A DNA stretch of 64,000 nucleotides from Nannocystales bacterium (GCA_050633305.1 JBOEGF010000014.1:128001-192000); one strand, 5' to 3'; positions 25,109-39,790 are shown, counted from the stretch's first letter. Notes: a model not told the origin generated them from the sequence alone. Numbers and translations: made by a program.

Positions 25109-25489
25109 CTAGCTCATCAAGCCGCTGAGGACGGTGCGTGCCCGGTCATCGTCCATGCCGATGGCTTTGGCGACCGCGCGCAGGAGGTCGTCCTCCTCCT
25201 CGAGCACGAAGCCGTCCGCACTCGCGACTCGGAACGCGGCGGTGAGCACCTTGGCCTGGGCGTCCGCCCCGAGATCGCTGGGAAGGCATCCCAGGACCTC
25301 CTGTGGACTCCGCCCTTGGGACTGTGCCTCGGCGGCATCCCGCGCCAGCTCCCCGTCCGGGAGCGCTCGGCCGGTGAATTCGTCGTACGCTCGTTCGGCT
25401 GCCGCCACCTCGTCGGGATCGACGTCTTCGTCGGCGACGATCATGGCCAGCAGGACTCCTCGCAAACAGGGCCCAAGAGAATCGCTCAC
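25109..25489 (-). CDS. TerB-like (tellurite resistance fold) protein
   Basis: AMIVADEDVDPDE...AFRVASADGFVLEEEDDLLRAVAKAIG. Confidence 0.8.
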   Translation of the reverse strand: MSDSLGPCLRGVLLAMIVADEDVDPDEVAAAERAYDEFTGRALPDGELARDAAEAQSQGRSPQEVLGCLPSDLGADAQAKVLTAAFRVASADGFVLEEEDDLLRAVAKAIGMDDDRARTVLSGLMS

Positions 25490-25521
25490 GGGCGGCTCAT
25501 ACCATGGCGTAGGCTGGTTGC

Positions 25522-25887
25522 ATGGCTGCAAGTCTGGTCGTCTGTTCGTCGTGCGCGGTACACGTAATACAGGGCGAGGAGCGGTGTCCACATTGTGGTG
25601 GAGCGGTTCGTTCGGATGTGACCCGTTCTCTGGGACGGGCAACGGGGGTGGTGCTGGCAGGATTGGTCCTTGCGGGCTGCCAGATCGAGCCCGAGTACGG
25701 TGTGCCACTCACCGCCACCACGGGCGGAGACACGGACACGGACACGGACACGGACACCGAGCCGTCGAGTACGACCATGGGAGGCGAGGGCACGGCGAGC
25801 ACGGGCTCCTCGTCGACCGGCGCGGGGTCCGGTGGAAGCACGAGCATCAGTCCCGACTACGGTGTTCCGACGACGGGCGAGTCGTAG
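25522..25887 (+). CDS. Zn-ribbon/lipobox/YGxP lipoprotein, copy 1 (putative radical SAM substrate)
   Basis: CSSC-x10-CPHC, LAGC lipobox, EYGVP, S/T/G/D linker, C-terminal ISPDYGVPTTGES. Confidence 0.85.
   Translation: MAASLVVCSSCAVHVIQGEERCPHCGGAVRSDVTRSLGRATGVVLAGLVLAGCQIEPEYGVPLTATTGGDTDTDTDTDTEPSSTTMGGEGTASTGSSSTGAGSGGSTSISPDYGVPTTGES
25730..25758 (+). repeat. in-frame (GACACG)n microsatellite encoding DTDTDTDT
   Basis: gacacggacacggacacggacacggacac read directly. Confidence 0.85.
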
Positions 25888-25912
25888 CGAGCGATTTGCT
25901 ACGCTACGCGGC

Positions 25913-26347
25913 GTGGCTTTGACTGCGTGTTCCTCATGCTCCTTGTACATCCGTCGCGATGAGATCGTGTGCCCGCATTGCGGGTCCGAACACGGTCCGA
26001 ATCGGGCTCCTGTGGCACGGACCGCCGCGGCGGTTCTGATGGGCCTGGCGCTCGCCGGGTGCCCCGCCAATGAGGACGATGAGGACACGGGGGACTCGAT
26101 CGCGACGTCGGCTCTGTACGGTGGTCCGACGACCGACACCGCGACGGAGGGTGGCTCAGGCACGACGAGCGGCACGGACTCCGCGACGTCGAGCAGCGGG
26201 TCTTCCGGGAGCTCGAGCACGACAGCGGCCGACACCAGTGGGACATCGAGCTCGACCGGCGGCGAAACCGACACCGACGGGAGCACGGGGTCGGGAAGCA
26301 GCACGGGCATCAGTCCCGACTACGGCGTGCCGACGACGGGTGAATAG
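25913..26347 (+). CDS. Zn-ribbon/lipobox/YGxP lipoprotein, copy 2
   Basis: GTG start (VALTACSSC...CPHC), LAGC, LYGGP, ISPDYGVPTTGE. Confidence 0.85.
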   Translation: MALTACSSCSLYIRRDEIVCPHCGSEHGPNRAPVARTAAAVLMGLALAGCPANEDDEDTGDSIATSALYGGPTTDTATEGGSGTTSGTDSATSSSGSSGSSSTTAADTSGTSSSTGGETDTDGSTGSGSSTGISPDYGVPTTGE

Positions 26348-26383
26348 CCTCGCACTGCACCATCCGGCTGCTACGCTGTCACT

Positions 26384-26893
26384 ATGGCTTTGGTAGCGTG
26401 CTCATCTTGTTCTGTCTACGTCCGGCGTGACGAGTCTGGTTGCCCCAACTGCGGTGCCGATCTGAGCGGTGCCGGCGGTCCTGTCGTTCGTACCGCGGCG
26501 GCGGTGCTCATGGGACTGACGTTGGCGGGTTGCCCCGCGCCCGAGCCTGAGGATGAGGGCGCTTCGTCTTCAGCAACGGACACCAGCTCACAGACGGATT
26601 CGTCTTCGAGCACGACGGGTGTTTCGGGGACCACCAGCCCCGCCACGATGTCGTCGGGCTCTGCGTACGGGGTCCCGCCCACGCAGAGCGGCACCGGAGA
26701 AGAATCGGGTCCGCCCGATACCACCGGGCCAGGCACCGATGGCTCCACGGGCACCGACACCGACACCGACGCAAGCACGAGCACCGGCTCGGCGACCGAT
26801 ACTGACACGGGTACCACCGGTGGCACCGATTCAGCGACGGAGACCGGGAGCACGGGCATCAGCCCCGACTACGGCACCCCCCCGACGGGCTGA
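26384..26893 (+). CDS. Zn-ribbon/lipobox/YGxP lipoprotein, copy 3
   Basis: CSSC...CPNC, LAGC, AYGVP, ISPDYGTPPTG. Confidence 0.87.
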   Translation: MALVACSSCSVYVRRDESGCPNCGADLSGAGGPVVRTAAAVLMGLTLAGCPAPEPEDEGASSSATDTSSQTDSSSSTTGVSGTTSPATMSSGSAYGVPPTQSGTGEESGPPDTTGPGTDGSTGTDTDTDASTSTGSATDTDTGTTGGTDSATETGSTGISPDYGTPPTG

Positions 26894-26916
26894 GCGGGGA
26901 TGCGATAGTCTCGGGC

Positions 26917-27372
26917 ATGGCTGGCCCACTTATCGTTTGCCCCTCTTGTTCCACGCACGTTTTGGTTCGTGACGCCGGATGTCCGCACTGCGGCGCGACC
27001 GTGCGCAGTGGTGGTCAGGTGCTCGGTCGTACCGCGGGGGCGATGCTCATGGGGCTGACGCTCGCCGGGTGTCCCGCATCCGACGACACGAGCGAGACGA
27101 TGGGCAACGGGGAAACCAGCACCACCAGCACGCAGCCGACCTCGTCCACAACGGACGACAGCGGCAGTACGAGCACGTTTGATGTCAGTAGTGGGCCCGT
27201 GGGCGAAGCCTACGGAAACCCCGACACCTCCGATACGCTGGGGACCAGCTCAGGCGGCGACACCGACGGGACCAGCTCGGGTTCGAGCGGTTCCAGCAGC
27301 GGCAGTGGCTCGGACAGTGGGTCCAGTACCGGGATCAGCCCGGACTACGGCGTGCCGACCACTGGTAAGTAG
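26917..27372 (+). CDS. Zn-ribbon/lipobox/YGxP lipoprotein, copy 4
   Basis: CPSC...CPHC, LAGC, AYGNP, ISPDYGVPTTGK. Confidence 0.87.
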   Translation: MAGPLIVCPSCSTHVLVRDAGCPHCGATVRSGGQVLGRTAGAMLMGLTLAGCPASDDTSETMGNGETSTTSTQPTSSTTDDSGSTSTFDVSSGPVGEAYGNPDTSDTLGTSSGGDTDGTSSGSSGSSSGSGSDSGSSTGISPDYGVPTTGK

Positions 27373-27443
27373 GCCTTCCTCCCTACCGTCTAGGTCCGTC
27401 GTGGGCTGGTGCTTGGCATCGGCTCCATGCGACCCTCCTACCC

Positions 27444-27950
27444 ATGGCTGGCCCTCTCATTGTTTGCGCTGCTTGCTCGTCCCATGTCCTGACTTCCGAC
27501 AAGGCCTGCCCGCATTGCGGAGCGGCGGTCCACGATGGCAAGGGGCAGGTCTTGGGGCGCACCGCAGCGGCAGTACTCATGGGGCTTGCGCTCGCGGGTT
27601 GCCCAGCGGATGACGACTCGGGCGATTCGATGGGCGGTGGGGACTCGTCATCCTCCGCGAGCACCGACCCTGGGAGTTCGGGGCCCAGCGAGGGAAGCAG
27701 CAGCACCGCTTCGTCGACCACCGCCGGATCGACGGCCGACACCTTCGCTGAGTCGGGTGCGCAGTCAGCCTACGGTACGCCAGACACCGAGACGTTCGGC
27801 ACGACCGACATGACCGAGTCGGACACGACCAGCTCGGGCGGCGACACCGACACCGACACCGACGCCGGAACTGACACCGAAGCGGGCGGCACGGACCCAG
27901 GCACGACCACGACCGCTCCGCTGTACGGCGCCGCGCCCAGCGACGAGTAG
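27444..27950 (+). CDS. Zn-ribbon/lipobox/YG lipoprotein, copy 5
   Basis: CAAC...CPHC, LAGC, AYGTP, C-terminal APLYGAAPSDE. Confidence 0.87.
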   Translation: MAGPLIVCAACSSHVLTSDKACPHCGAAVHDGKGQVLGRTAAAVLMGLALAGCPADDDSGDSMGGGDSSSSASTDPGSSGPSEGSSSTASSTTAGSTADTFAESGAQSAYGTPDTETFGTTDMTESDTTSSGGDTDTDTDAGTDTEAGGTDPGTTTTAPLYGAAPSDE

Positions 27951-27952
27951 CC

Positions 27953-28477
27953 TTGTCTAATCCGAGTTCTCAGGACGAGATCAATCCGTACGCTCCGCCG
28001 GGCATGCCGGAGCGTACGGCACAGACGTTGACCGACAAGGAGAGCAACGCGCTTCGAACGGCGGGGAGAGGCCGCGCGGCGACGCTCAAGGCCGTCGCCG
28101 TACTCCACTATGCCAAAGCCGTCGCATTGCTGTTGACCTCTATCGGTGGCTTTTCCACGGTCATTCGAGGGCAGTATGCGATTGGCGCCATCATGATCGC
28201 AACGGGGTTTGGGCTCGCACTCATTCCGTTTCTTGCGGCGCGCTGGCTGTTTCGCCTGCGCCCGAAGGGCCGGATCATCGCGACCGCGTTGGCTGCAGTC
28301 GAATTCGCGGCACTGGTCTGGCGGGCCGTGGCGGCGCCAGCAAGCGAGTCGATGGCAGAGACTGGGGCCAGCACGGTCGTTGGTGCCTTGTTCGTGCTCG
28401 CGGTCCTTTGGGTGCTGTGGAGCCCGCCTTCGGCGACGGTGTTTAGCCAGCGCTTCCGCGATGCAGCGATGCCGTGA
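27953..28477 (+). CDS. membrane protein (about 4 TM) with N-terminal NPYAPP motif
   Basis: Four hydrophobic segments; INPYAPP; starts 2 nt after copy 5. Confidence 0.7.
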   Translation: MSNPSSQDEINPYAPPGMPERTAQTLTDKESNALRTAGRGRAATLKAVAVLHYAKAVALLLTSIGGFSTVIRGQYAIGAIMIATGFGLALIPFLAARWLFRLRPKGRIIATALAAVEFAALVWRAVAAPASESMAETGASTVVGALFVLAVLWVLWSPPSATVFSQRFRDAAMP

Positions 28478-28546
28478 CGAACACGCGCGGACGGTCGCGT
28501 TACGTCGGGAACGTACCGCTGCAGCGGTGGCTTGCCGTAGTCTGCT

Positions 28547-29062
28547 CTAGTCGTTGATGGTGACTTTGACCATCTTCACGGGCGTTCGGGGTCGGTCGTT
28601 GCCGTCGGTCGATGTCGTGCCGATGCTGTTGACGACGTCCATCCCGCTGACGATCTTGCCGAACACCGGGTGCTTGGAGTTGCCCGGGGTGAAGAAGTCC
28701 AAGAAGTCGTTGTGCTTAGTGTTGATGAAGAACTGGGAGCTGCCGCTCCCGGGTCGGCCGGTGTTGGCCATCGACAGGGTGCCGACTTCGTTGGAGAGCT
28801 TGTGTTCGGCGGGATGCTCATCGGGGATGCATCCATCGGGGCCGTCGCCAGTCCCGGCACGAGACGAGTTGGGGTCGCGGCTGTGGGGGCAGCCGAACTG
28901 AATCATGAATCCGTCGATGACCCGGTGGAAGTGCAGTCCGTCGTAGAAGCCGCTCTTCGCGAGTTTCACGAAGTTGGAGGCCGTGATCGGCATCTCGTCG
29001 GTGAACAGCTCCACTTCGAAGGAGCCCATGGACGTTTCCAAGGTGGCGGTGGGATTGGCCAT
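28547..29062 (-). CDS. peptidyl-prolyl cis-trans isomerase, cyclophilin type
   Basis: [48 protein letters not shown]. Confidence 0.95.
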
Positions 29063-29111
29063 GCCGCACGAGTATCAAGCTCGCGGCGCGCCGTCACGGC
29101 CGGGCGCGCGT

Positions 29112-29711
29112 TCACGGAGACCAGCGGGCCACAAACTCACACCGATCGTGACCTTCGTAGCGACAGCGGACGTGTTCGACTGTCCCGCCGGTTCCTGACA
29201 GCTCGAGGCCGCGCTGTAGCCAGGGGCCGGGACCGTTCGCGCAGGTCAGCGCGCCAGCGGTCTGGGTCTCGTCGGCGCGGTCGGTGAGCCAGAGTCGCCA
29301 GTGCCCCGCGGCCTCCTGTTTTGCGCCGAAGACCCCGCTGTCGAAGTAGCGCTTCCACAAGAAGCCGGTGCGCTTGAGCATGAACTCGGGAGACCCGAGC
29401 TTGAGTACGATCCGCACCAGTGTGTTCAGCTCGCGTTCGCCGAGGTCGGCGCAGAACAGAGCCATACCTTCGTTGGGATCTGTGTACTGTTGGCTGAAGA
29501 AGTCGCGGACGATCGTGTTCCATGCTGCGATGGGCTGCCAGCTCGAGGCGAGGATGATGCCGTTGAAGAGCTCCTGTTCGCGCTCGCCAGTGCTGACGAG
29601 TGCTGCATCCCACGCGCCTTGGCCGTGCTTCTCCACCGCCCACCGCTCCAGGTGGTTGAAGAGCAACCCCTTGGCTCGGCCACCGGGGGCGTGGAGTTCG
29701 TCGCGGCTCAT
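29112..29711 (-). CDS. hypothetical protein, HNOB/V4R-like ligand-binding fold (myxobacterial DUF2378-like)
   Basis: AKGLLF...HGQGAWD, SPEFMLKR...LWKRYFDSG, HVRCRYEGHDRCEFVARW. Confidence 0.65.
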   Translation of the reverse strand: MSRDELHAPGGRAKGLLFNHLERWAVEKHGQGAWDAALVSTGEREQELFNGIILASSWQPIAAWNTIVRDFFSQQYTDPNEGMALFCADLGERELNTLVRIVLKLGSPEFMLKRTGFLWKRYFDSGVFGAKQEAAGHWRLWLTDRADETQTAGALTCANGPGPWLQRGLELSGTGGTVEHVRCRYEGHDRCEFVARWSP

Positions 29712-29723
29712 GGGGGCACAGTC

Positions 29724-31166
29724 TCAGAACTGAACGCTGGATGCGATGCTATCCACCGGAACATAGGCAGGGACGCCCTGGGCCTCGAGTGTGGACTCCA
29801 GCGTGATGAGGTCGTTTCGAAGTTGGGTATTGGCTTGACGCAATCGGGGGCTGCTGAAGCCGTAGTCGATGTCCAAGAGCCTCTCGGTCACGTAGGGGCG
29901 AAAGAACATCAGCTTGCACATTCGGTAGTTGAAGTTGTCCCCCGAGGTCATGAGTGTACGCAGATCGGGGGCGTCTTGCTGGTCGAGGGAAGGGAGCGTT
30001 GTGTGCAACCGGAAGGGAACCTCGCGTTCGTTGACCGCTCCGTAGATGAAGTGGTCGGCCGAATGCGACACGGCGACGTCGAGCACGATGCTGGTGAGGG
30101 CGCGCGCCAGTGGGTCCGCGTCGTAGATTTGGGTGGCGTCGGGGAAACCCGGGAGCCAGCGTGCGCAATAGCCGGCCCAGCGAGACACCGCGTCGCTGGG
30201 TTGCGCGACGACCTCGTCGGCGACCTCGCGGATGAACTTCAGGAGGACTCGGTGGTAGTGCCCGAGGAAGTCGCCGTAGGGCGAGTGGATGACGGGGGCG
30301 TCGAGGTTGAGCTTGTAGGTTGGGTAGGCCTGGTTCGGTGTGCCGTCCGGGTGCTTGAAGCCGCGCCACAACGTGGCGACGACCTCGTCATGCTCCGCTT
30401 GGGTGCCCGGATAGGGGGAGTACAGCCGCCCCGGTTTGAGCACGGTCTGAGTGCCGTAGAGAACGGCGTAGTTGACCGCCAGTGCGAGTCGGAAATGTGG
30501 CCGTAGAAACTTGGAGAGCGTGCTGCTGGCGGGGAGCCTCGAGCGGGTGATCGCGTCCACGCAGTTGCTCGGAAAGTGCAGCTTCGGGTGCATGAGCAGG
30601 GTCGTGAGCACGCCCGCGCCCTGAAGTGCGAAGTACTTCGCGCGAGTCCACGCCCCTTCGTGGCTGGCATCGAAAACCTGGTCGTGGACCGCGATCGCGA
30701 CCAACTCGTAGGTGAGGTCCTCGCCGCGCCTGAAGAGCACGACACTGGGCGCCGTCGCACTGTCCGCGTCGCTTCGGATGAGGCGCATCGGCGTGAAATC
30801 ACTCTTGAACCATCCCGCACCATCCCCGAGGCCCGGACCCTTGTCGCCGCTGAGGTAGTCCGCAAACAGGGCGTTGTCGGGCGGGTCGAAGAGCGACTGC
30901 GGCGTGAGGAACTTCGAGAAAATGCCGTCGCAGAGGATCTCGCAGAACCGGATGTCGTCGACGGGCACGGCGCCGGGATTGCGGCGCGACCACAGCCACG
31001 TCGGGACCGTATCCAGGAGAACTTGTTTGATGTAGCGGCGTCCGACGTGCTTGTTCCAGTCCTTCTGCACGTCGTCGGGGACATGCAGCACCGCGGGTGC
31101 CGCGTCCTCGAAAAAGCGGGGCGCCGGCTGTGGCCACGGACCGAATCCCTCTGGTTGTTTCGCCAT
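29724..31166 (-). CDS. lipoxygenase-like protein
   Basis: WTRAKYF...HPKLHF...AITRSRLP...KFLRPHFRLALAVN, HSADH and C-terminal IASSVQF mirror LOX motifs (W..AK, H..H, LL.PHF...IN, HxxxN/H, I.NS.SI); AGGAGG RBS. Confidence 0.7.
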   Translation of the reverse strand: MAKQPEGFGPWPQPAPRFFEDAAPAVLHVPDDVQKDWNKHVGRRYIKQVLLDTVPTWLWSRRNPGAVPVDDIRFCEILCDGIFSKFLTPQSLFDPPDNALFADYLSGDKGPGLGDGAGWFKSDFTPMRLIRSDADSATAPSVVLFRRGEDLTYELVAIAVHDQVFDASHEGAWTRAKYFALQGAGVLTTLLMHPKLHFPSNCVDAITRSRLPASSTLSKFLRPHFRLALAVNYAVLYGTQTVLKPGRLYSPYPGTQAEHDEVVATLWRGFKHPDGTPNQAYPTYKLNLDAPVIHSPYGDFLGHYHRVLLKFIREVADEVVAQPSDAVSRWAGYCARWLPGFPDATQIYDADPLARALTSIVLDVAVSHSADHFIYGAVNEREVPFRLHTTLPSLDQQDAPDLRTLMTSGDNFNYRMCKLMFFRPYVTERLLDIDYGFSSPRLRQANTQLRNDLITLESTLEAQGVPAYVPVDSIASSVQF

Positions 31167-31657
31167 CGCCGTCCCTCCTGGGTCGGTCACAACGATACCC
31201 CAACGAGGTGGGCGCGGCACAGGCGATCGTCGACGGTCGCTGGCCTCGGTTTCGGAGTCGGTGCAACGCTGCGTTCGATGGGCTTCCGCGGATCAACCGC
31301 GGGCGAGGGGGGGCCGTCGACGTCGGGGTCGACTCGCAGCCCCTTGCCCAGTTGGCGCCGGTGCCAACTGCCGAGCTGTCAACGGGGAACGGGCGGCGAC
31401 CTTGGCTCGCGGAAGCCCTCCCCGTACGCGCGGGGTGGCACAGGGGCGATGCCGCGACACTGCGGCACGCGGAACGACGCCGGGGAGGGCCGCTGCGTCG
31501 GCGTGAGTGCCGTGCCGCACAACCGACTCCGGGGACCGCCGCTGAGCCACCCAGGCAGGGATGCGTGAATCGGGCTCTCGCGGTCTCGCAGGGCATGTTG
31601 CGCACACGCGCGCTTCAAGGGGGTGAGGCCGCGGCGAGAGGGCTCTAGACTGACTCG

Positions 31658-33850
31658 ATGAGTCTCCCCGCGCCAGACATCAGGGCAACCGCGGCCGCAG
31701 AATTGTTGGGCCAGACCCTCTCGGGTCGTTTTCGGCTGGACTCGTTGCTCGGTCACGGCGCGATGGGAGCCGTGTTCAAAGCGCATCACCTCGGACTGCA
31801 CAAGGACGTTGCGCTCAAGCTCCTTCACCCCGAGCTCACGGCGAACGACGAGATGGTTGCGCGTTTCGATCGGGAGGCGGCCGCGGCGTCTCGCCTCGAC
31901 CATCCCAACTGCGTTCGCACGATGGACTTCGGGTCGACCGAGGACGGGCGCCGCTACCTCGTGATGGAGTTCCTCGAGGGGAAGGATCTGGCGGACATCG
32001 TCTTGGAACCGATGCCGCCGTTTCGCGTGGTGGACCTGATTCTTCAGGTGTTGGAGGGCCTCGCGCACGCCCACGCGCAGGGCCTCGTTCACCGTGACAT
32101 CAAGAATGAGAACATCTTCGTCCTCGGCGGTGAGAGTGGCGAGCAAGTCAAGTTGCTGGACTTCGGCATCGCAAAGGTCAGCCATGGGGCGGGGGCCGGG
32201 CAGCTCACGCAGGCGGGCATCATCTTTGGGACTCCCCACTACATGAGCCCGGAGCAGGCGCGTGGCGAGAAGGCCGATGCGCGGAGCGACTTGTACTCGC
32301 TTGGCATCGTGATGCACTCGATGCTTGCGGGGGACCTTCCGTTCCATGGGGACGACGCGCTGGCGATCCTGCGCGGGCAGATCTCGGAGGAGCCCCCGAA
32401 GCTCCCCGATTCTGTCCCGGGCTCGCTGCGTCATTTCGTCAGGCAGTTGCTGGCGAAACAGCCCGAGGAGCGCTTCACGGATGCGGCGGCCGCGATCGCC
32501 GCGCTGAAGCGGGCCGCTTCACCGACCGAGCGCTCGGCCAAGTCGAAGCTGCCACCACCTCCGGAGTTCGACCTACGGGGACAGAGCATGGAGCGGACGG
32601 AAACACACTCGTTGGCGGACACCGAGGCCGACGAGGCTGCGGACGAGCCCATCGAGCTGCCTCAGCAGGCGGAGGTTGCGTTGCTCAAGGCTGAAGGGCC
32701 CGATTCCGACTCCGGCTCGGCCCTGGAACTCGTCGAACTGGAGCCGGAAGAAGAGCCGGGAGAGGAGTCTGAGAGCTCTGCCTCCGCACCTCCGCCTGCC
32801 TCCGCTGGGACGCGCGATACGGATGCCGAGGACACATCCACGACAATACACTCCGTTCCTGGGTCGGAGCGGCCGCCGTGGCTTCTGCCGGCCGTCGGCG
32901 TCGGTGTGCTTGGCCTGTTTGTGCTGATTGTCGCAGCGTGGCCTGATGGCGACGAGGTCGAGAGCGAGTCCGAGGTCGCTGCCGCCGGAGCCTTCGAAAA
33001 TGGGGACGAGAAAGTCGCGGCCGTTTCGGAGGAGCCCGACCCGGTGCTGGTCGACGACGACACCCCTGACCCGGAGCCTGACACGGGCGATGGGGACACC
33101 CAGGTCCAATCCAAGCGCGCGCTTCGGGCCACCCTCGCGTCCGTCGATGCGCTCATCGAGTCCAAGAAGTACGACGCGGCCCGGATCACGATCGGCCCGC
33201 TGCTCGAGGTCTACGGTGACGAGCCGGAGCTGCACTGGCGGATGGGTGCAGTGCTCGTGGCGCTTGGACGCAAGGTCAACGCGGCTGCGGCCCTGGAAAG
33301 CTACCGGGCGGCGCTGTCCCTGAAGTCCGAGTTGCTCGACGATGAGGAGTTCTCGACGACGTTCTGGGACCTTCTCGACGACCCGCGGAACCGGGAGCTG
33401 GCTTCTCAGATCGCGGTGGAGCTGCTCGGCGAGCAGGGCCACGAGCGACTCGCGCGGTGGGTCAACGTACAGAAGAGCCCGCTGCCGTACGCGTTGCGTC
33501 AAACGGTGACCGAGCACCTGCGCGCCGCCGACCAGGGGGCTCGCATCAACGAGCCGTTGCAGACGGCGCTCGACCTGTGGCAGTCCAGCGCCGCCCAAGC
33601 ACCCTGCGAGGCTTTCACCGCCGCGCTCGAGGCTGCGACCGAGAACCCTGACAGCTACCTGCTGGGGACTCTGGCCGCGGTGAGTGTGCCCAAGACGGGT
33701 GAAAGCGACGAGCTGGTCGAGTGCCCGGGCCTTGCCGAGGCGCTCACGAGCGCGCGGGGCGACTACGCGCGGCGCTATGCCGGACTCGACCCGGCGGTCC
33801 CGGCCGCGTACGGCCGAAGGAAGTCCGCCGGGCGGAAGCGTCGGCGGTAG
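31658..33850 (+). CDS. membrane Ser/Thr protein kinase with helical (TPR-like) extracytoplasmic domain
   Basis: LGHGAMGAVF, VALKLL, HRDIKNEN, DFGIAK, GTPHYMSPEQ, DLYSLG; one TM segment. Confidence 0.95.
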   Translation: MSLPAPDIRATAAAELLGQTLSGRFRLDSLLGHGAMGAVFKAHHLGLHKDVALKLLHPELTANDEMVARFDREAAAASRLDHPNCVRTMDFGSTEDGRRYLVMEFLEGKDLADIVLEPMPPFRVVDLILQVLEGLAHAHAQGLVHRDIKNENIFVLGGESGEQVKLLDFGIAKVSHGAGAGQLTQAGIIFGTPHYMSPEQARGEKADARSDLYSLGIVMHSMLAGDLPFHGDDALAILRGQISEEPPKLPDSVPGSLRHFVRQLLAKQPEERFTDAAAAIAALKRAASPTERSAKSKLPPPPEFDLRGQSMERTETHSLADTEADEAADEPIELPQQAEVALLKAEGPDSDSGSALELVELEPEEEPGEESESSASAPPPASAGTRDTDAEDTSTTIHSVPGSERPPWLLPAVGVGVLGLFVLIVAAWPDGDEVESESEVAAAGAFENGDEKVAAVSEEPDPVLVDDDTPDPEPDTGDGDTQVQSKRALRATLASVDALIESKKYDAARITIGPLLEVYGDEPELHWRMGAVLVALGRKVNAAAALESYRAALSLKSELLDDEEFSTTFWDLLDDPRNRELASQIAVELLGEQGHERLARWVNVQKSPLPYALRQTVTEHLRAADQGARINEPLQTALDLWQSSAAQAPCEAFTAALEAATENPDSYLLGTLAAVSVPKTGESDELVECPGLAEALTSARGDYARRYAGLDPAVPAAYGRRKSAGRKRRR

Positions 33851-33916
33851 CGGGACGTCGTTGCGCCGCTGCCCCATGGACGGCGGAGCACGTCGTTCCT
33901 TGTTACAGTCCTCGCC

Positions 33917-34396
33917 GTGCCGGAACTGTTCTCGTCACCGGAGGGGAGCATCCTCATGGATGAGCGGTACTTTCCGATGGTCGTCCAGCGGTGGGAAGGT
34001 GCGCAGACGGTCGAGGTCGTGCGTGACCACTTCGACTACTCGATTCCCCTGTTGGAGCGCGCCCGCCGGGAGAAGGTTGCCATTTCTGTCGTACTGGACG
34101 CAGTCGACTCCATTCGCCCGACATCGACCGTGCGCAAGTACATCGCAGAGCGTGCGGACGACATCGCGGAGCAGTGGCCCGAACTTCTCAGGCCGTCCCG
34201 GGTTGTCATCCTGAGCGCGCCCTTGCGAGGCGTCATCACTGCGCTGGGCTGGCTTTCACGCGGAGCCCTTCAGCTCGCGTCCTACCCGAGTCGCCCCTCC
34301 GCGATTCGAGCAGGCATCGCCCATCTTGAGGCGGTGGGCTCGCCCGTCCCCGAAGGTTTGGATCCCAGTGGGTATGAGTTCCCCTGTGTGGACTGA
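33917..34396 (+). CDS. STAS/SEC14-like small protein
   Basis: FPMVVQRWEG...VVLDA...VVILSAPLRGVITALGWL; same pattern as 7783-8169. Confidence 0.65.
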   Translation: MPELFSSPEGSILMDERYFPMVVQRWEGAQTVEVVRDHFDYSIPLLERARREKVAISVVLDAVDSIRPTSTVRKYIAERADDIAEQWPELLRPSRVVILSAPLRGVITALGWLSRGALQLASYPSRPSAIRAGIAHLEAVGSPVPEGLDPSGYEFPCVD

Positions 34397-34416
34397 GCAG
34401 ACGCGGGCGATCGTCA

Positions 34417-34441
34417 GGCGCCGGGTTCGACTCCCGGCGCC
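34417..34441. terminator. GC-rich hairpin between convergent genes
   Basis: GGCGCCGGG-ttcgact-CCCGGCGCC, a perfect 9-bp stem. Confidence 0.55.
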
Positions 34442-34442
34442 G

Positions 34443-34931
34443 TTAGTCACGGGAGATGAGCTCGGTTGCCCGATCGTACAGCGACGATCGCTGTAGCGCG
34501 GCGTCGAAGCGATCGAGCGCCGCGATCACCCCATCGGCCTCTTTGTCGAGCTGCCGAGCGACGACTTCGAGTGCGTCCCACACCGCGGTGAGGCGGCTCC
34601 ACAACGCTCGGCCTTTCCGCGACATTCGTAGGTGACGCTTCCGCCTGTCCTGTGTGTCGGGCTTGGACACGACCAATCCGGCAAGCTCCAGAGAGCGCCG
34701 GGTTTGGCTCACCGAGGCATGGGTAATCCGAAGCGCCTTCGCGAGTTCGCTGACCGTCGCGGGGCCGCGCAGCGCCAACTGGTTCAGCACGCCGAACCAA
34801 CGTTGCTCGAACACCACACCGGCGTCGTCGTAGAGGCGGCCTGCATCGCGCTCGAGGAGTTCCGAGAGCCTGCGCAGCCGGGCGCCAACGGCCGCTTCGG
34901 TTCCATAGCCCGCACCGGTCTTCATCGCCAT
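34443..34931 (-). CDS. MarR family transcriptional regulator
   Basis: GARLRRLSE...FEQRWFGVL...TVSELAKALRITHASVSQT...DRRKRHLRMS; GGAGG RBS. Confidence 0.9.
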   Translation of the reverse strand: MAMKTGAGYGTEAAVGARLRRLSELLERDAGRLYDDAGVVFEQRWFGVLNQLALRGPATVSELAKALRITHASVSQTRRSLELAGLVVSKPDTQDRRKRHLRMSRKGRALWSRLTAVWDALEVVARQLDKEADGVIAALDRFDAALQRSSLYDRATELISRD

Positions 34932-35001
34932 CAGTCCTCCGAGGTTGACAGAAACGTAGGCGCCTACGCAATATGGGAACGCAGTCCGCGAGGAGTCGTC
35001 C

Positions 35002-36102
35002 GTGAGCGCATTAAAGTCATCTTCCGCCGCCCTCGCCTTCGTGATCTCGTGCGCGAGCCCCCCGCGAGGCGTTGAACACCATCGCGGGCACGAAGAGACG
35101 ACCGCCACGTACAACGACGTGGTTGAAGTGCTCGCGACGGAGCTCGAAGCCGCCTACGTCTTCCCGGACGTGGGTCGGCGGTACGCGGACGCCCTGCGCG
35201 GCCCGGAGTTTCGAGACGTCGTGCGAGATACGCCGCCGGGGAACCTGTCCAAGGTGCTGACAGCATACCTCCAAGGGATTCATGCGGACGCCCATCTGCG
35301 GGTCTGGGGCCCCGACACCGAAGCTGGGCCTACCCAAGCCGTGGCCCCTTCAGCGCCGACGCCGGGAGGTCTCGAAGCCGCGGTCTCCCTAACTCCACGG
35401 ATCGCCTACCTTCGTTTCAACCTGTTTCCGGGGGACGAAGACACGCTGAACCGGCTCTCGGAGTTTGTCCTGAACAACGCGGGAGTGGAGGTTCTGATCA
35501 TCGATGCACGCGGGCATCGGGGTGGGGGCCTGAGCGAGATGGACGCGCTCTTCGCAGAACTCTTCGCGGAGGAGACCACGCTTGTTGCCATGGACACTCG
35601 TCTCTCCGTTGACCGTGCGGGAGGATCTCCGATCACCGATGGCCCGACGGTTCGCCGCGTGGTTGCCCCGGACGAGGTCGTCCGGCGAGAGCATGTCGCG
35701 GTGCCATCGGCACAACCCCGGCTTGTGGACACCAAGCTCTACGTGCTGGTGTCGGGGTACACCGCCTCGGCCGCCGAGCACTTGGCACTGGCGGTGAAGC
35801 GGACGGAGCGCGGAATCGTCGTCGGGGAGGCGACCCGAGGCGGTGCCCACTTCGGAGGCACGACCGATCTCGGCGCGGGCTTCAGCGCCTTTGTTCCGGT
35901 TGGCCGCAGCTTTAACCCTGACACAGGCGAGGACTGGGAGGGGGTTGGTGTGGCCCCGGACACCGTTGCTCCCGCCCCACAGGCGTTGGTCGCCGCGCTG
36001 GTCGACCACGGTCTCTCTCCAGACGAAGCGAAGCGAATCGATGCCTCGGTGGCGTACGTTCCTCCCGAGTCTCCATCCCATCGTCCGGTCGGTGCGCTTT
36101 GA
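35002..36102 (+). CDS. S41 family peptidase
   Basis: IAYLRFNLF, LIIDARGHRGG, TASAAEHLA, VVGEATRGGAH, WEGVGVAPD. Confidence 0.9.
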   Translation: MSALKSSSAALAFVISCASPPRGVEHHRGHEETTATYNDVVEVLATELEAAYVFPDVGRRYADALRGPEFRDVVRDTPPGNLSKVLTAYLQGIHADAHLRVWGPDTEAGPTQAVAPSAPTPGGLEAAVSLTPRIAYLRFNLFPGDEDTLNRLSEFVLNNAGVEVLIIDARGHRGGGLSEMDALFAELFAEETTLVAMDTRLSVDRAGGSPITDGPTVRRVVAPDEVVRREHVAVPSAQPRLVDTKLYVLVSGYTASAAEHLALAVKRTERGIVVGEATRGGAHFGGTTDLGAGFSAFVPVGRSFNPDTGEDWEGVGVAPDTVAPAPQALVAALVDHGLSPDEAKRIDASVAYVPPESPSHRPVGAL

Positions 36103-36174
36103 TCCTGCGGCCGTCGTCACCGGGTCCCTCCTTTTTCTTTCACGAGAAGAGGCCGGGCCGGGAAACGGGGGGTG

Positions 36175-37308
36175 ATGACACGTCCGTCGATTCTCTTCGT
36201 AGCGTCTGTGGGGCTGCTGTGCAGCGCATGTGACGAGCTGGCCCCCGATCCGCAGCCCAAACCGTTGCCCGAACAGCAAGTCGAGACGCTTGAGGCGACG
36301 ATTGAGGAACTCGACAACGAGTTCGAAGGAATGGGAATCGCGCTCGCCGTTCGCACGGGGTCCGGGGCCCAATGGGCCGGGGCTCTCGGACTTCGAAACC
36401 TGCGGACCCCGTTGGAGGCCGGCGACGTCGCGCAGTTCGGCAGTGTCACCAAGACGGTCACCGCCACAGTCACGCTTCAGCTCGTTGAAGAGGGGCTTCT
36501 CTCTCTCGATGACACCATCGACACGTTCGGGATCGACCTCCCGCATGCCGACACGATCACGGTGCAGCAGCTACTCAGCCACCGCTCGGGCCTCTTCAAC
36601 TACACCGACGATGAGGCGTTCATGGCGTCCCTCGGCGAGACACCGCAAACGGCCGACGCGGTCTTCGACGTGGTCGACGACTATGAGCCTCTGTTTCCGC
36701 CCGGTGCGGCGTGGACGTACTCGAACACCAACTACATGGCGTTGGGCGTGATTCTCGAGAGCGTCACGGGGCAACCGCTCGAGGACATCTTCTACGCTCG
36801 CGTGTTCGGGCCGCTGGGAATGGAGGACACCGGGCTTACGGATCGAGATCCGATCCCCGGGCCCCTTGCGCACGGGTTCATGGAGGAGGATGGGGTGCTG
36901 GAGGATGTGACCTTCGCGTTCAACAAGAGGGCGCAAGGGCCCGATGGCGCGCTCTTCAGCACGTTGGACGACATGCTCACGTGGTCACACGCGCTGTACG
37001 GCGGTGAGCTGCTCGACCCGGAGACTCTGGAGGCCGTTGTCGCTCCGCGGTCGGCGGAGATCGTCAGTCCTGTCGCGGCCGCATACGGCTTCGAAGGCGG
37101 TGACTACGGCCTGGGCACGATCGTGCTCGAGGACGAGCTGCTCGGAGCTGTCTGGGGACACGCAGGCAACATTCGCGGGTACACGGCGTACGTCGGGTAC
37201 GTGCCAACACTCGACGTTGCGGTGGCGTTTTACACAACCCAAGACAGCGCCGATGGACTGGTCGCCGCACGCCAAATTGCGACCGCGCTCCACGACTTCG
37301 ATCGTTGA
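36175..37308 (+). CDS. serine hydrolase (beta-lactamase class C/peptidase S12), lipoprotein
   Basis: GSVTKT (SxxK), LLSHRSGL, YSNTNY, WGHAG; lipobox CSAC. Confidence 0.92.
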   Translation: MTRPSILFVASVGLLCSACDELAPDPQPKPLPEQQVETLEATIEELDNEFEGMGIALAVRTGSGAQWAGALGLRNLRTPLEAGDVAQFGSVTKTVTATVTLQLVEEGLLSLDDTIDTFGIDLPHADTITVQQLLSHRSGLFNYTDDEAFMASLGETPQTADAVFDVVDDYEPLFPPGAAWTYSNTNYMALGVILESVTGQPLEDIFYARVFGPLGMEDTGLTDRDPIPGPLAHGFMEEDGVLEDVTFAFNKRAQGPDGALFSTLDDMLTWSHALYGGELLDPETLEAVVAPRSAEIVSPVAAAYGFEGGDYGLGTIVLEDELLGAVWGHAGNIRGYTAYVGYVPTLDVAVAFYTTQDSADGLVAARQIATALHDFDR

Positions 37309-37344
37309 GCGCGGTTTGGCCGGCGGAGGGGGGCCGTCGGTGGA

Positions 37345-38604
37345 CTACTGCAACACGGGCAGCTTCTTGGTCGAAAGCGTCGGCGTGAAGTCTTCTTCTT
37401 TCCAGTCTTCGATATCGAGCTCGAAGCAGCCGAAGTCGTACGGGTCGCCTGGTGCCTTGTGCTTGTGGCGCAGGATCTCCCGCTTGCCCTGCTTCTTGAG
37501 CTCGTTGGCCCGGTGCCAGCAGTGGGGGTTGTTGCCGCGGCGACCCAAGGTGGAGTGGGTAGTGAACGAACAGCCCGCGCGGCAGACATCGGCGTAGTAG
37601 CAGCTCTTGCAGAACCCCCACAGCTCGCTGGTGCCGCGGTCACGCGTGAATGCGACCTCCGGCGTGTTGTGCCAGATGTCCTCGAGTGACAGGTCGCGGA
37701 CGTTGCCCCCGATGTACGGGGCGGTGGGGAGTGAGGGACAGCCCTTGATCTTGCCGTCGGACTCGATGCCCATGACGTACTTGCCGGCTTGGCATCCCTG
37801 CCAGTATCGCTCTTGCTCGGGTCGCGAGCGGAGCAGCTGCTCGTGTGGGCCGTAGTAGCCGAGGTTGTTGCCGATACCGATGCGGAACGCCTGCCGCAGC
37901 GGGATGTTTTTCTCGTGGGCGTCCTTGAGGACTTCCTCTTGGACCTCGGCCAGCGTGTCGAGGACCTCGAGCATCTGGTACGGCTGCAGGATCCACTCGG
38001 GACGGTCTGCGGCGGCACCCATCGGTGCTGTCATCTGGGCCCGCCAGATCAGCACGCCCGCATCGCGCATCATCATCGCGGTCTCCCGCAGCACGTGCAT
38101 GTTGAGCCGGTTCACCTGGCTGTTGGTGGTGACGATCATGCCTTCGGCGCGCGCGTTGGCGATCGCGCGCATGGCCGACTCGTGGCTGCCCGGCGCATTG
38201 CGCAGGACGTCGTGGATCTCTGCGGGGCCGTCGACCGAGACGCCGATCGCGGATAGCCCAGCTTCCTTGAGCTTGCGGCACTTGGTCGGGGTGAGTCCGC
38301 GACCACCGGTTTGCATGGTGACGCGAACGCCTCCCTTGGCGAGGTGGGCGATCAGCTCGTAGCAGTCGCTGCGCAGGTACGCCTCGCCGCCGATCAGTGT
38401 CACTTCCCGCGTCCCCAATCGGACGAGCGCATCTGCCACCTCGAGCATCTCCGCGGTGCTCAGCTCGTCGTCTCGGACGGATGGACCAGCCCTGGAGCCA
38501 CAGTGGGAACACGCGTGGTCGCAACGCAGGGTGATCTCCCAAACGCAATAGACCGGGATGTTCTTGCCAGCGTCAGATTGTCTTAAGCTACGGGCGGTCG
38601 CCAC
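37345..38604 (-). CDS. radical SAM/SPASM peptide/protein maturase, PlpX (splicease)-like
   Basis: VWEITLRCDHACSHCGSRAG (CxxxCxxC), TLIGGEAYLR, GNNLGYYGP, SPASM WQGCQAG...GIESDGKIKGCPSL...LWGFCKSCYYADVCRAGC...NNPHC. Confidence 0.9.
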   Translation of the reverse strand: MATARSLRQSDAGKNIPVYCVWEITLRCDHACSHCGSRAGPSVRDDELSTAEMLEVADALVRLGTREVTLIGGEAYLRSDCYELIAHLAKGGVRVTMQTGGRGLTPTKCRKLKEAGLSAIGVSVDGPAEIHDVLRNAPGSHESAMRAIANARAEGMIVTTNSQVNRLNMHVLRETAMMMRDAGVLIWRAQMTAPMGAAADRPEWILQPYQMLEVLDTLAEVQEEVLKDAHEKNIPLRQAFRIGIGNNLGYYGPHEQLLRSRPEQERYWQGCQAGKYVMGIESDGKIKGCPSLPTAPYIGGNVRDLSLEDIWHNTPEVAFTRDRGTSELWGFCKSCYYADVCRAGCSFTTHSTLGRRGNNPHCWHRANELKKQGKREILRHKHKAPGDPYDFGCFELDIEDWKEEDFTPTLSTKKLPVLQ

Positions 38605-38611
38605 GGCTCCG

Positions 38612-38620
38612 AGCGTAGCA
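38612..38620 (-). promoter_or_regulatory. extended -10 (TGCTACGCT) 7 nt before the GTG of the radical SAM gene; probable leaderless promoter
   Basis: Minus strand reads aacga-TGC-TACGCT-cggagcc-GTG. Confidence 0.55.
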
Positions 38621-39102
38621 TCGTTGCGTGGCGCATCCCGGCGCCACGGGGCCCGCGTGCGGTCTGGCGATGAGCGGTGGGACGTTGGTCCGTTGTGACA
38701 GTGGTATTGGCCGAGGGTTGTCGGTGGGGTCGTACGCGTTGCGGGTGCACGTTTGCAACGGGCTCGAGTTCGGGAGCCGGTGGAAGCCGTCGTTCAGACG
38801 CGACTCGGAGACGAGACGCTTCGCCGAGTCACGTCGAGGGCGGACTCGGGACGCCCGGCTTGGCCCGGCCCACGGGCTGAGGACCGCGCTGGTTGGGGAA
38901 GTCCAAGAGTGTCTCCACCGACGTGACACGGACGGGCGGGACCCAGGACCGCTCGACCGCCGTGGTCCTGCAGGAGAAGCTTCGGCGGACCACGGTTCGG
39001 GCGCGGCGCAACTCTCGCACTCGCGATGGTTGCTCGAAGGAAAAACGCCCGGATTCCCGCGCTCTCGGATCCTTCGGTTGCGACTGGCCGTGCATTGGCC
39101 TA

Positions 39103-39130
39103 AAACCGAATGCGGGTTCGGATTCGGTTT
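39103..39130. promoter_or_regulatory. candidate TetR operator
   Basis: AAACCGAAT-N10-ATTCGGTTT, a perfect 9-bp inverted repeat abutting the TetR ATG at 39131. Confidence 0.65.
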
Positions 39131-39790
39131 ATGGTTAGTGTCGCCCCCAAACTTCGGATACCTCGGCAGGCGCGAAGCCGCGAAACCCTCCGCCGCATTC
39201 TCGACGCGTTCGAGGAGGCGCTCCGAGACAAGACGTTTGAAGAGGTGACGGTGGGCGAGCTTTGCGAGCGGGCGGACTGTTCCGTCGGCACGTTTTACGG
39301 CCGTGTGGAGTCGAAGGATGCCTTGCTGGAACACCTTCGACGTCGGGTGTACGGCGAGGTCGAGGCACGGCTTGGCGAGCTCTTCGACCCGCAGCGCGGC
39401 GCGTCGAACGACCTCGAGTCGGTGATCTCCGAGCAGTTGGAAGTGCTGCTCGACTTCCATCTGCTGCGCCGTGGCGTCATCCGAGCGGTCGTCGTTCAGG
39501 CGCGACGACACCCCGCGTTCGCCGAGCAAACACAGCTGTTCAACGGGGCCGTGCTGCGGCTCGTTCGCGAGTCCTGGCTGCAACATCGCGAAGAGATTAC
39601 AGCCGCAGACCCGGTGTTCGCGGCCGAGCAGGCATCGATCATGATCGCCGGTTACTTTCGCGAAGCCATCGTGTTTCGCGAGTTGTGGCCCACCGAGCGC
39701 CCTTTCGACCGCGGCGCTCTGTACCAACACTGCAAGACCGCAACCATCCGCAGCTTGATGGGCCGCGACCCAAAAGGAGGCAACTCGTGA
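39131..39790 (+). CDS. TetR/AcrR family transcriptional regulator
   Basis: PRQARSRETLRRILDA...VTVGELCERADCSVGTFYGRVESKDALL. Confidence 0.92.
   Translation: MVSVAPKLRIPRQARSRETLRRILDAFEEALRDKTFEEVTVGELCERADCSVGTFYGRVESKDALLEHLRRRVYGEVEARLGELFDPQRGASNDLESVISEQLEVLLDFHLLRRGVIRAVVVQARRHPAFAEQTQLFNGAVLRLVRESWLQHREEITAADPVFAAEQASIMIAGYFREAIVFRELWPTERPFDRGALYQHCKTATIRSLMGRDPKGGNS

Follow-up and report, generated by a model that had tools for sequence, protein, structure and literature searches.

We analyzed a stretch of 64,000 nucleotides from a Nannocystales bacterium (GCA_050633305.1 JBOEGF010000014.1:128001-192000; the window), for which an earlier note had proposed a splicease system composed of a PlpX-like radical S-adenosylmethionine (SAM)/SPASM enzyme and five tandem lipoprotein substrates with x-Tyr-Gly (YG) sites. 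The five open reading frames (ORFs) are arranged in tandem on the + strand (25522..27950), and each encodes a ribbon head, a lipobox, and an acidic mature part. Precursor 1 (25522..25887, +; 121 amino acids) contains a Cys4 ribbon, a signal, and the lipobox Cys53, followed by the sites E-Y59-G (codon 25696) and D-Y113-G (25858). Precursor 2 (25913..26347, +; 144 amino acids, GTG start) has its lipobox Cys at position 50 and the sites L-Y69-G (26117) and D-Y137-G (26321), and precursor 3 (26384..26893, +; 169 amino acids; lipobox Cys50) carries A-Y95-G (26666) and D-Y163-G (26870). Precursor 4 (26917..27372, +; 151 amino acids; lipobox Cys52), with A-Y99-G (27211) and D-Y144-G (27346), provided the head for the complex model described below and obtained the highest score on a profile built from heads adjacent to orthologous enzymes. 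Precursor 5 (27444..27950, +; 168 amino acids; lipobox Cys53) contains A-Y110-G (27771) and L-Y161-G (27924).

All five proteins start with the pattern CxxC-x10-CPxC, followed by one Arg, an uncharged stretch of 13 residues, and the LAGC lipobox, the Cys of which is located at residues 50 to 53. Zinc-ribbon Pfam matches to these heads were weak, with none above the cut-off, and the corresponding ribbon clusters in the ESM Atlas bear either no name or only that of "zinc-ribbon" and are commonest in Myxococcota. The mature parts comprise 69 to 120 residues, of which 67-75% are S/T/G/D, and have a net charge of -11 to -23, which agrees with the lipoprotein-like paralogues that the earlier note had described. 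Each mature part contains exactly two Tyr; all 10 precede Gly, and nine of the 10 sites read YGxP, as claimed. The statement that every Tyr is part of a YG holds for the mature parts but not for the whole copies 2 and 3, which contain a third Tyr within the ribbon that does not precede Gly. Residue X is Asp or Glu at five of the 10 sites. The last site is found 7 to 9 residues from the C terminus in all five proteins, and the tail is conserved in four. By eye, TAnnnT boxes were noted 5 to 7 bases ahead of the starts of copies 1 to 4 and of the enzyme gene (7 bases for precursor 2), and three of them read TACGCT. These boxes suggest separate leaderless promoters, and leaderless transcripts would fit a translated ribbon.

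The radical SAM/SPASM enzyme (37345..38604, -; 419 amino acids) has the CxxxCxxC motif at residues 28-35, SPASM Cys residues at 271, 289, 332, 335, 341, 345, and 362, and no fused ribbon. Its Radical_SAM and SPASM Pfam domains scored above the cut-off, and the motifs quoted in the earlier note were present. The best-scoring family was TIGR03913 (417.6 versus a cut-off of 591.75, with the match ending at profile position 389 of 477), followed by TIGR04103, which we take to be IPR026482 (401.5 versus 725); the next family scored 155, and TIGR04133 gave 145.4 versus a cut-off of 425. We then placed the enzyme in a quick IQ-TREE phylogeny of 41 rows, with the clade enzymes of two loci (L002 and L030) outside the tree. 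The references, all from plasmid records, were enzymes from Nostoc (passing TIGR04103 with 853 bits), Azospirillum (passing TIGR03913), Aureibacter (located beside DUF1843 genes), and Tropicibacter. The window enzyme and all four references fell into one 30-row clade (100 in the Shimodaira-Hasegawa-like approximate likelihood ratio test; branch 1.03), the basal relations of which were not settled. The PlpX/TIGR03913 identity assigned by the earlier note thus survives as a shared clade but not as membership, as both cut-offs were missed. According to a review passage, PlpX belongs to IPR026482. The Nostoc TIGR04103 member is 43.6% identical to the window enzyme; in the alignment of the two, the barrel, the GNNxGYYGPxE loop, and every SPASM cysteine are colinear. 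Among solved structures, SkfB and PqqE were the best matches by sequence (E about 5e-15), and this search retrieved no splicease structure or splicease complex. As the earlier note had observed, no substrate gene is directly beside the enzyme; the six frames of the 590 bases upstream (38560-39150) contain no YG-bearing small ORF.

To assess whether the YG sites exceed what composition alone would produce, we inspected the five window lipoproteins that had been named as controls. In the first 120 mature residues of each, there were three Tyr in total and no YG, in accordance with the earlier claim. A genome-wide control of 120 low-complexity lipoprotein-like ORFs, with a Gly fraction of 17%, had 11 of 59 Tyr in YG and no YGxP, and one of the 11 YG belonged to a member of the family itself. 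The 10 of 10 YG in the window do not represent 10 independent events, since the five copies are paralogues; the probability that two of two Tyr precede Gly by chance is about 0.03. We therefore built a head-only profile of 29 rows, with no YG inside, and searched it against 1.84 billion cluster representatives. The lipobox Cys is invariant in the 29 aligned heads, which were themselves selected for it. From the 150 matches listed, we took 57 single-match, near-full-length proteins, of which 52 had a parsable lipobox and five were dropped; most of the other listed matches were multi-ribbon proteins matching the ribbon alone. YG was present in 51 of the 52 proteins, and 108 of their 117 mature Tyr were in YG. 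At these 108 sites, Pro occupied position -2 in 78, Val position +2 in 82, and Pro position +3 in 80, and X was Glu in 44, Asp in 31, Ala in 18, and Leu in 10, resulting in the consensus P-[E/D/A]-Y-G-V-P.

The precursors and the enzyme are separated in the window by 9,394 bases, and the earlier note had linked them across this distance. We compared the locus with four genomes of the same genus (G003 to G006), in which the orthologous enzyme is 84-90% identical. In each of them, one to three precursors end beside the enzyme stop codon, with a tail-to-tail spacing of 7 (G004), 21 (G006), 61 (G003), and 60 (G005) bases. The gene order TerB, precursor, and enzyme is kept in all four, with a TetR gene past the enzyme in three. 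The corresponding synteny anchor in the window is a TerB-like gene (25109..25570, -; start approximate), a conserved neighbor upstream of the precursors; the TetR-family gene (39110..39790, +) is divergent from the enzyme gene and is its neighbor in G001 to G005 but was not seen there in G006. Two further genomes are split like the window: G002 contains two precursors, about 7.3 kb sharing two genes with the window gap, and then the enzyme, whereas in G001 the precursors and the enzyme are on different contigs. In a quick tree, the window's own genome, G001, and G002 formed a clade nested among the unsplit genomes, which indicates that adjacency of precursor and enzyme is ancestral. Because sister species keep both side by side, we conclude with high confidence that the precursor array and the enzyme gene form a conserved unit, and the 9.4-kb gap is a late rearrangement. 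The window enzyme is intact, and its nearest orthologues are 95-97% identical. A search of the contig collection for related loci returned only three close orthologues. Over 14 orthologous loci (63-97% identity), a precursor was present within 1.5 kb in eight, always in convergent orientation.

The gap (27951..37344) harbors genes outside the system, namely, those for a membrane protein, a cyclophilin, two unknown proteins, a Ser/Thr kinase, a further unknown protein, a MarR protein, an S41 peptidase, and a beta-lactamase-family hydrolase, and they are absent at this place in G003 to G006. The S41 peptidase and the hydrolase were rejected as pathway members, as neither is at the locus in G001 to G006. 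A single foreign element was likewise rejected: the guanine-plus-cytosine content of 63-69% resembles that of the flanks, and several of the genes are on separate contigs in G004 and G006, both of which fit better with a piecemeal rearrangement. The gap also encodes a 498-amino-acid protein (29724-31220, -) with no Pfam or NCBIfam match and a 199-amino-acid protein with a weak V4R match (29112-29711, -), and these two genes stay paired in G001, G002, and G006.

The link was also apparent from co-occurrence. Among 40 relatives, 24 contained both parts and 16 contained neither, at thresholds of E <= 3e-90 for the enzyme and E <= 3.3e-9 for the head (in the 16, heads scored no better than 5.4e-6); these thresholds were placed in natural gaps after the data had been viewed, the profile was built partly from the same genomes, and related genomes are not independent. 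At the family level, 20 of 23 genomes had both parts, and the three with neither are 90-95% complete. Among the matches listed, a head was found within 1.5 kb of 63 of the 78 clade enzymes and of none of the nine outgroup enzymes, where one partial enzyme row was dropped and the head matches beyond the 150 listed are 43 weaker ones. Furthermore, in an even sample of the phylum, the enzyme was present in 42 of 151 genomes, which indicates that the route is common in the phylum. At the 28 new loci from this sample, an adjacent ribbon-YG gene was detected in 22 by a strict pattern and in another three, with degenerate ribbons, by eye, and none was seen in the remaining three. The pairing that the earlier note had proposed to check by co-occurrence and adjacency was thus upheld by both. 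Since 71 of the 150 heads listed were within 2.5 kb of an enzyme, the enzyme for about half of the substrates would be encoded farther away, as it is for the window array.

We next considered the role of the ribbon, which the earlier note had overlooked. In two GDL-type enzymes, the head profile matched the C-terminal tail (27.4 and 19.8 bits), and in the Tropicibacter clade enzyme it matched the N terminus (21.1 bits), whereas it did not match the Nostoc and window enzymes. These matches place the ribbon module on the enzyme in certain systems, whereas here the substrate carries it. In the Tropicibacter plasmid record (L048:2680-4302), a ribbon and a degenerate signal-like stretch are fused N-terminally to the clade enzyme. 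A complex model of the window enzyme with the head of copy 4 scored 0.68, compared with 0.15 for the best of three controls; in the calibration, 116 of 157 solved complexes and 2 of 215 mismatched pairs attained this score, counts that are only rough because custom alignments and ligands were used. The model runs agreed in at least 67% of contacts, and the partner had a predicted local distance difference test score of at least 68. In the best-placed contacts, ribbon residues 2, 4, 8-11, 13, and 20-21 face enzyme residues 251-257, 267, and 336-340, a region that includes the invariant G252, P253, and E255 and is beside the SPASM cysteines 271, 335, and 341. Modelled contacts of fragment residues 43-49 with the active-site region were left unused, given errors of about 5 A and a possible chain-end artefact. 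Based on this model and on the fused ribbons, the ribbon is probably an enzyme-docking element. Known spliceases are activated by PlpY or, in two-part systems, by a leader helix, and this element can be fused to the C terminus of the enzyme (PMC11414181). We assumed that the ribbon binds Zn, with Fe being another possibility; given its docked position next to the SPASM cysteines in the model, the ribbon might even be a rubredoxin-like iron center that accepts electrons from the reaction.

The comparison with known systems revealed similarities to several of them and identity with none. A PlpX-clade enzyme (quick tree) and a linked precursor with a conserved x-Tyr-Gly, two broad features of a splicease system, are both present. 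Like the type I systems (TIGR04103) PlpX/PlpY/PlpA and PcpXYA of Pleurocapsa, the window system has a radical SAM/SPASM enzyme of the same clade and substrates with x-Tyr-Gly in a P-x-Y-G-[V/L]-P context. However, the window enzyme is below the family cut-off, X is often Asp or Glu instead of Met or Leu, and the substrates carry a Cys4 ribbon and a lipoprotein signal instead of a Nif11/NHLP leader; no match of Nif11 or NHLP models to the precursors was obtained. A PlpY-like partner was not found with the one Nostoc query used (best E 0.32). Two-component spliceases lacking Y are said to form types II to V, as reportedly set out by Scott et al. in 2022. In RhaX/RhaA, RcsX/RcsA, and RasX/RasA of Rheinheimera, the precursor N terminus supplies the enzyme-binding element, as would be the case here, although that element is a PlpY-like helix and not a Cys4 ribbon ahead of an export signal (PMC11414181). 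The TIGR03913 maturases, the best-scoring family for the window enzyme, have a C-terminal Cys4 ribbon that matches the precursor head profile, and the family-model search gave weak hits as well; their ribbon is thus on the enzyme and not on the substrate, their partners are helical DUF1843 peptides of 54 to 70 amino acids without an export signal, and no DUF1843 match was found among the window neighbors scanned. The Bacteroidetes pair TIGR04133/TIGR04134 likewise combines a SPASM enzyme with lipoprotein genes, but membership was not supported: the window enzyme scored 145 bits versus 425, which is not above the scores of the Nostoc and GDL enzymes, the whole genome had no TIGR04134 match above the cut-off, and the precursors were not among the weak matches. 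With these cut-offs missed, the pair is only an analogy.

According to citing papers, the 2022 splicease survey covered 189 genera, with 27 characterized and 939 predicted systems, and counted YG near SPASM genes, an approach that should catch the class present in the window (PMC10849128, PMC10533398). Such loci are therefore likely listed there. The supplement text of PMC11414181, as distinct from its alignment figures, names types II, III, and V and contains "Myxo", "lipoprotein", and "zinc" 0 times. We found no description of ribbon-lipoprotein splicease substrates in a literature search that most subscription papers lay beyond.

We propose a two-component, splicease-type modification system, the halves of which were pushed apart in this lineage. 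In the cytoplasm, the N-terminal Cys4 ribbon of the precursor would dock beside the SPASM domain of the enzyme, in place of the PlpY activator or the leader helix. At one or both x-Tyr-Gly sites of each protein, the enzyme would then remove a tyramine equivalent (C8H9NO, -135.07 Da) and close the backbone again, leaving an alpha-keto-beta-amino amide. Sec would subsequently export the unfolded precursor, Lgt would attach a lipid to the lipobox Cys, and LspA would cleave the protein, so that the ribbon is lost together with the signal and a lipid-anchored acidic tether carrying ketoamides remains. In the least certain step, the ketoamides would act as protease inhibitors or establish reversible covalent linkages within the envelope. 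Modification is placed before export because the enzyme, an iron-sulfur protein, lacks a signal sequence and because removal of the signal would also remove the ribbon. We consider this explanation as a whole moderately probable. Tyramine excision at some sites is quite likely, given the clade membership and the resemblance of the P-x-Y-G-V-P context to the PlpA2-derived splice tag, P-L-Y-G-L-P (PMC10533398). Spliced Rheinheimera peptides inhibit serine and cysteine proteases, whereas the unspliced forms do not (PMC11626197), and by analogy a tethered protease trap is plausible, if tentative; the display at the cell surface that the earlier note had suggested is likewise putative. Covalent tethering or a labile linkage may be other roles for the ketoamides.

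A number of observations weigh against this explanation. The enzyme is below every curated family cut-off, and the PlpX family is represented in the tree by the Nostoc protein instead of PlpX itself. Acidic X dominates, with 5 of the 10 sites in the window and 75 of the 108 in the library, in contrast to the Met or Leu of native type I sites (PMC9811515), and RcsA carries a DYG site that escaped modification (PMC11626197). The ribbon-lipobox gene directly upstream of one of the paralogous enzymes (G000:C24:121008-121457; L004:6011-6454, -) encodes two G-G-S-Y-Y-A-G-P repeats and no YG, and only two of the five DUF1843 peptides seen beside GDL enzymes contain YG, both of which suggest that motif or chemistry varies within the clade. 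At six of the 14 orthologous loci, the 1.5-kb flank is devoid of a precursor. The complex model departs from the calibration setup, and, as close cousins of the true partner can also pass, it is silent on which paralogue binds. Regarding export, the lipobox Cys at 50-53 is past the usual range, and all four Lgt-like genes of the genome scored under the TIGR00544 cut-off.

Several of these points, namely, the two missed cut-offs, the dominance of acidic X together with the unmodified DYG site, and the YYAG variant, would equally suit a genuine pairing with another Tyr chemistry, such as a Tyr cross-link or a radical rearrangement, or splicing of A/L-Tyr-Gly only, with the D/E sites untouched; the partly open relations inside the 30-row clade point in the same direction. 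Nevertheless, the enzyme is colinear with a TIGR04103 member in its barrel, GNNxGYYGPxE loop, and SPASM cysteines, 108 of 117 library Tyr precede Gly in a consensus resembling the PlpA2 tag, and splicing has been reported for 27 diverse enzyme-substrate pairs (PMC10849128). We therefore regard a different chemistry as unlikely.

As to the fate of the product proposed here, the features of a lipoprotein signal, i.e., a basic residue, an uncharged h-region, and an L-A-G-C lipobox, were found in all five precursors. Under the PROSITE rule, the lipobox Cys is within about residues 15-35; it is late here because the ribbon precedes the signal. The genome contains three LspA copies above the cut-off. 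The lgt-like and lspA genes are located on contigs C6, C8, C12, C32, and C47, with an lspA-lgt-lspA cluster on C32, and an Lgt/LspA paralogue might handle ribbon-extended signals. A lipid-anchored product is fairly probable. Alternatively, splicing may be real and the end product a released short ketoamide peptide, with the lipid anchor serving as a staging post and proteases cutting the tether. The position of the last site, 7 to 9 residues from the C terminus in all five proteins with a conserved tail in four, would suit such a peptide, and known spliceotides are active as short peptides (PMC11626197). On the other hand, no protease or transporter is a conserved neighbor, and the S41 peptidase and the serine hydrolase are absent from this locus in G001 to G006. 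Relatives moreover graft the head and YG onto Cys-rich or folded domains, a probable signal-peptidase-I signal, or a MYXO-CTERM-like tail, and in several of them YG directly follows the lipobox Cys. We thus consider a released peptide decidedly improbable.

The analysis of the window's own genome (G000) revealed that the earlier reading was incomplete, with four further enzymes and about 17 further substrates. In total, there are five clade enzymes, and all four others adjoin ribbon-lipobox genes. The family comprises 20 clear members, one weak member, and one copy with two frameshifts (G000:C16:57028-57450), which is either a pseudogene or an assembly error; five members are in the window, five are beside other enzymes, and the rest stand alone. 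With five enzymes in one cell and array and enzyme genes that are 9,394 bases apart, convergent, and never co-transcribed, the window array could now be modified by one of the four paralogues or by none. We scored the heads with a profile of 10 heads adjoining orthologues of the window enzyme elsewhere, in which same-genus rows inflate the scores. The window heads reached 62-91 bits and seven stand-alone heads 54-81 bits, as compared with 20-38 bits for the heads beside the four paralogues. These scores indicate that the window enzyme is the likely partner of the array and probably also of about seven stand-alone substrate genes, which are located on other contigs. The enzyme is, in addition, intact and 95-97% identical to its nearest orthologues, and no operon was broken, since the ancestral layout was already convergent. 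Loss of the array to a paralogue, or to no enzyme, is therefore very unlikely. Finally, a compositional accident combined with chance proximity of the enzyme, for which the common ancestry of the five copies and the value of about 0.03 for two of two might speak, is refuted almost beyond doubt by the control lipoproteins (11 of 59 Tyr in YG, no YGxP) versus the head-selected proteins (108 of 117) and by an adjacency of 63 of 78 among the matches listed versus a rough chance of 0.003 per enzyme.

Judged from the sequences, this is a real system, a myxobacterial variant that combines an enzyme of a known kind with substrates of distinct design. More tentatively, Myxococcota may run a general backbone-editing route for envelope proteins, in which a portable ribbon before the export signal books a protein to its cognate splicease, in cis when fused to GDL-type enzymes, and the protein is exported with alpha-keto-beta-amino residues. 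If so, Asp or Glu would give rise to many of these residues and, in certain relatives, the lipid-bearing Cys to others, and a single cell would edit about 22 proteins with five enzymes. Reviews still describe the native products of spliceotide systems and what they do as unknown (PMC9811515, PMC8868522); precursors retained at the membrane would be an easier native target than the elusive small peptides. A splicease-recruiting ribbon of 25 residues and enzymes accepting Asp/Glu-Tyr-Gly would also widen the PlpXY/RhaX protein-labelling toolkit. The window's own addition is modest: synteny ties a distant enzyme to an expanded array, and one genome contains a network of five enzymes and roughly 22 substrates.

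The relatives and the window's own genome showed several further arrangements. YG immediately after the lipobox Cys (C-Y-G) was found in G000:C6:198502-199053 and at L024, L025, L026, L027, L031, L066, L067, L076, and L082, where the residue turned into the keto-beta-amino form would be the lipid-bearing Cys. Ribbon, lipobox, and YG are fused to Cys-rich or D-x-D-G-D-G domains in G000:C23:242930-243937 and C24:109838-110668 and at L058, L059, L066, L067, and L069, which suggests that the YG tag has been grafted onto larger proteins. In L056:1430-1927 (G000:C47), a ribbon head is combined with one YG before a MYXO-CTERM-like tail (16.9 bits; cut-off 20), a different envelope anchor. Of two other ribbon-YG proteins (L064:499-1485 and L071:2693-3085), one has a probable signal-peptidase-I signal and a folded domain, and the other is without an export signal. 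Lastly, two enzymes outside the core clade (L033:2581-3750 and L034:2694-3002) adjoin YG-rich lipoprotein-like genes without a ribbon.

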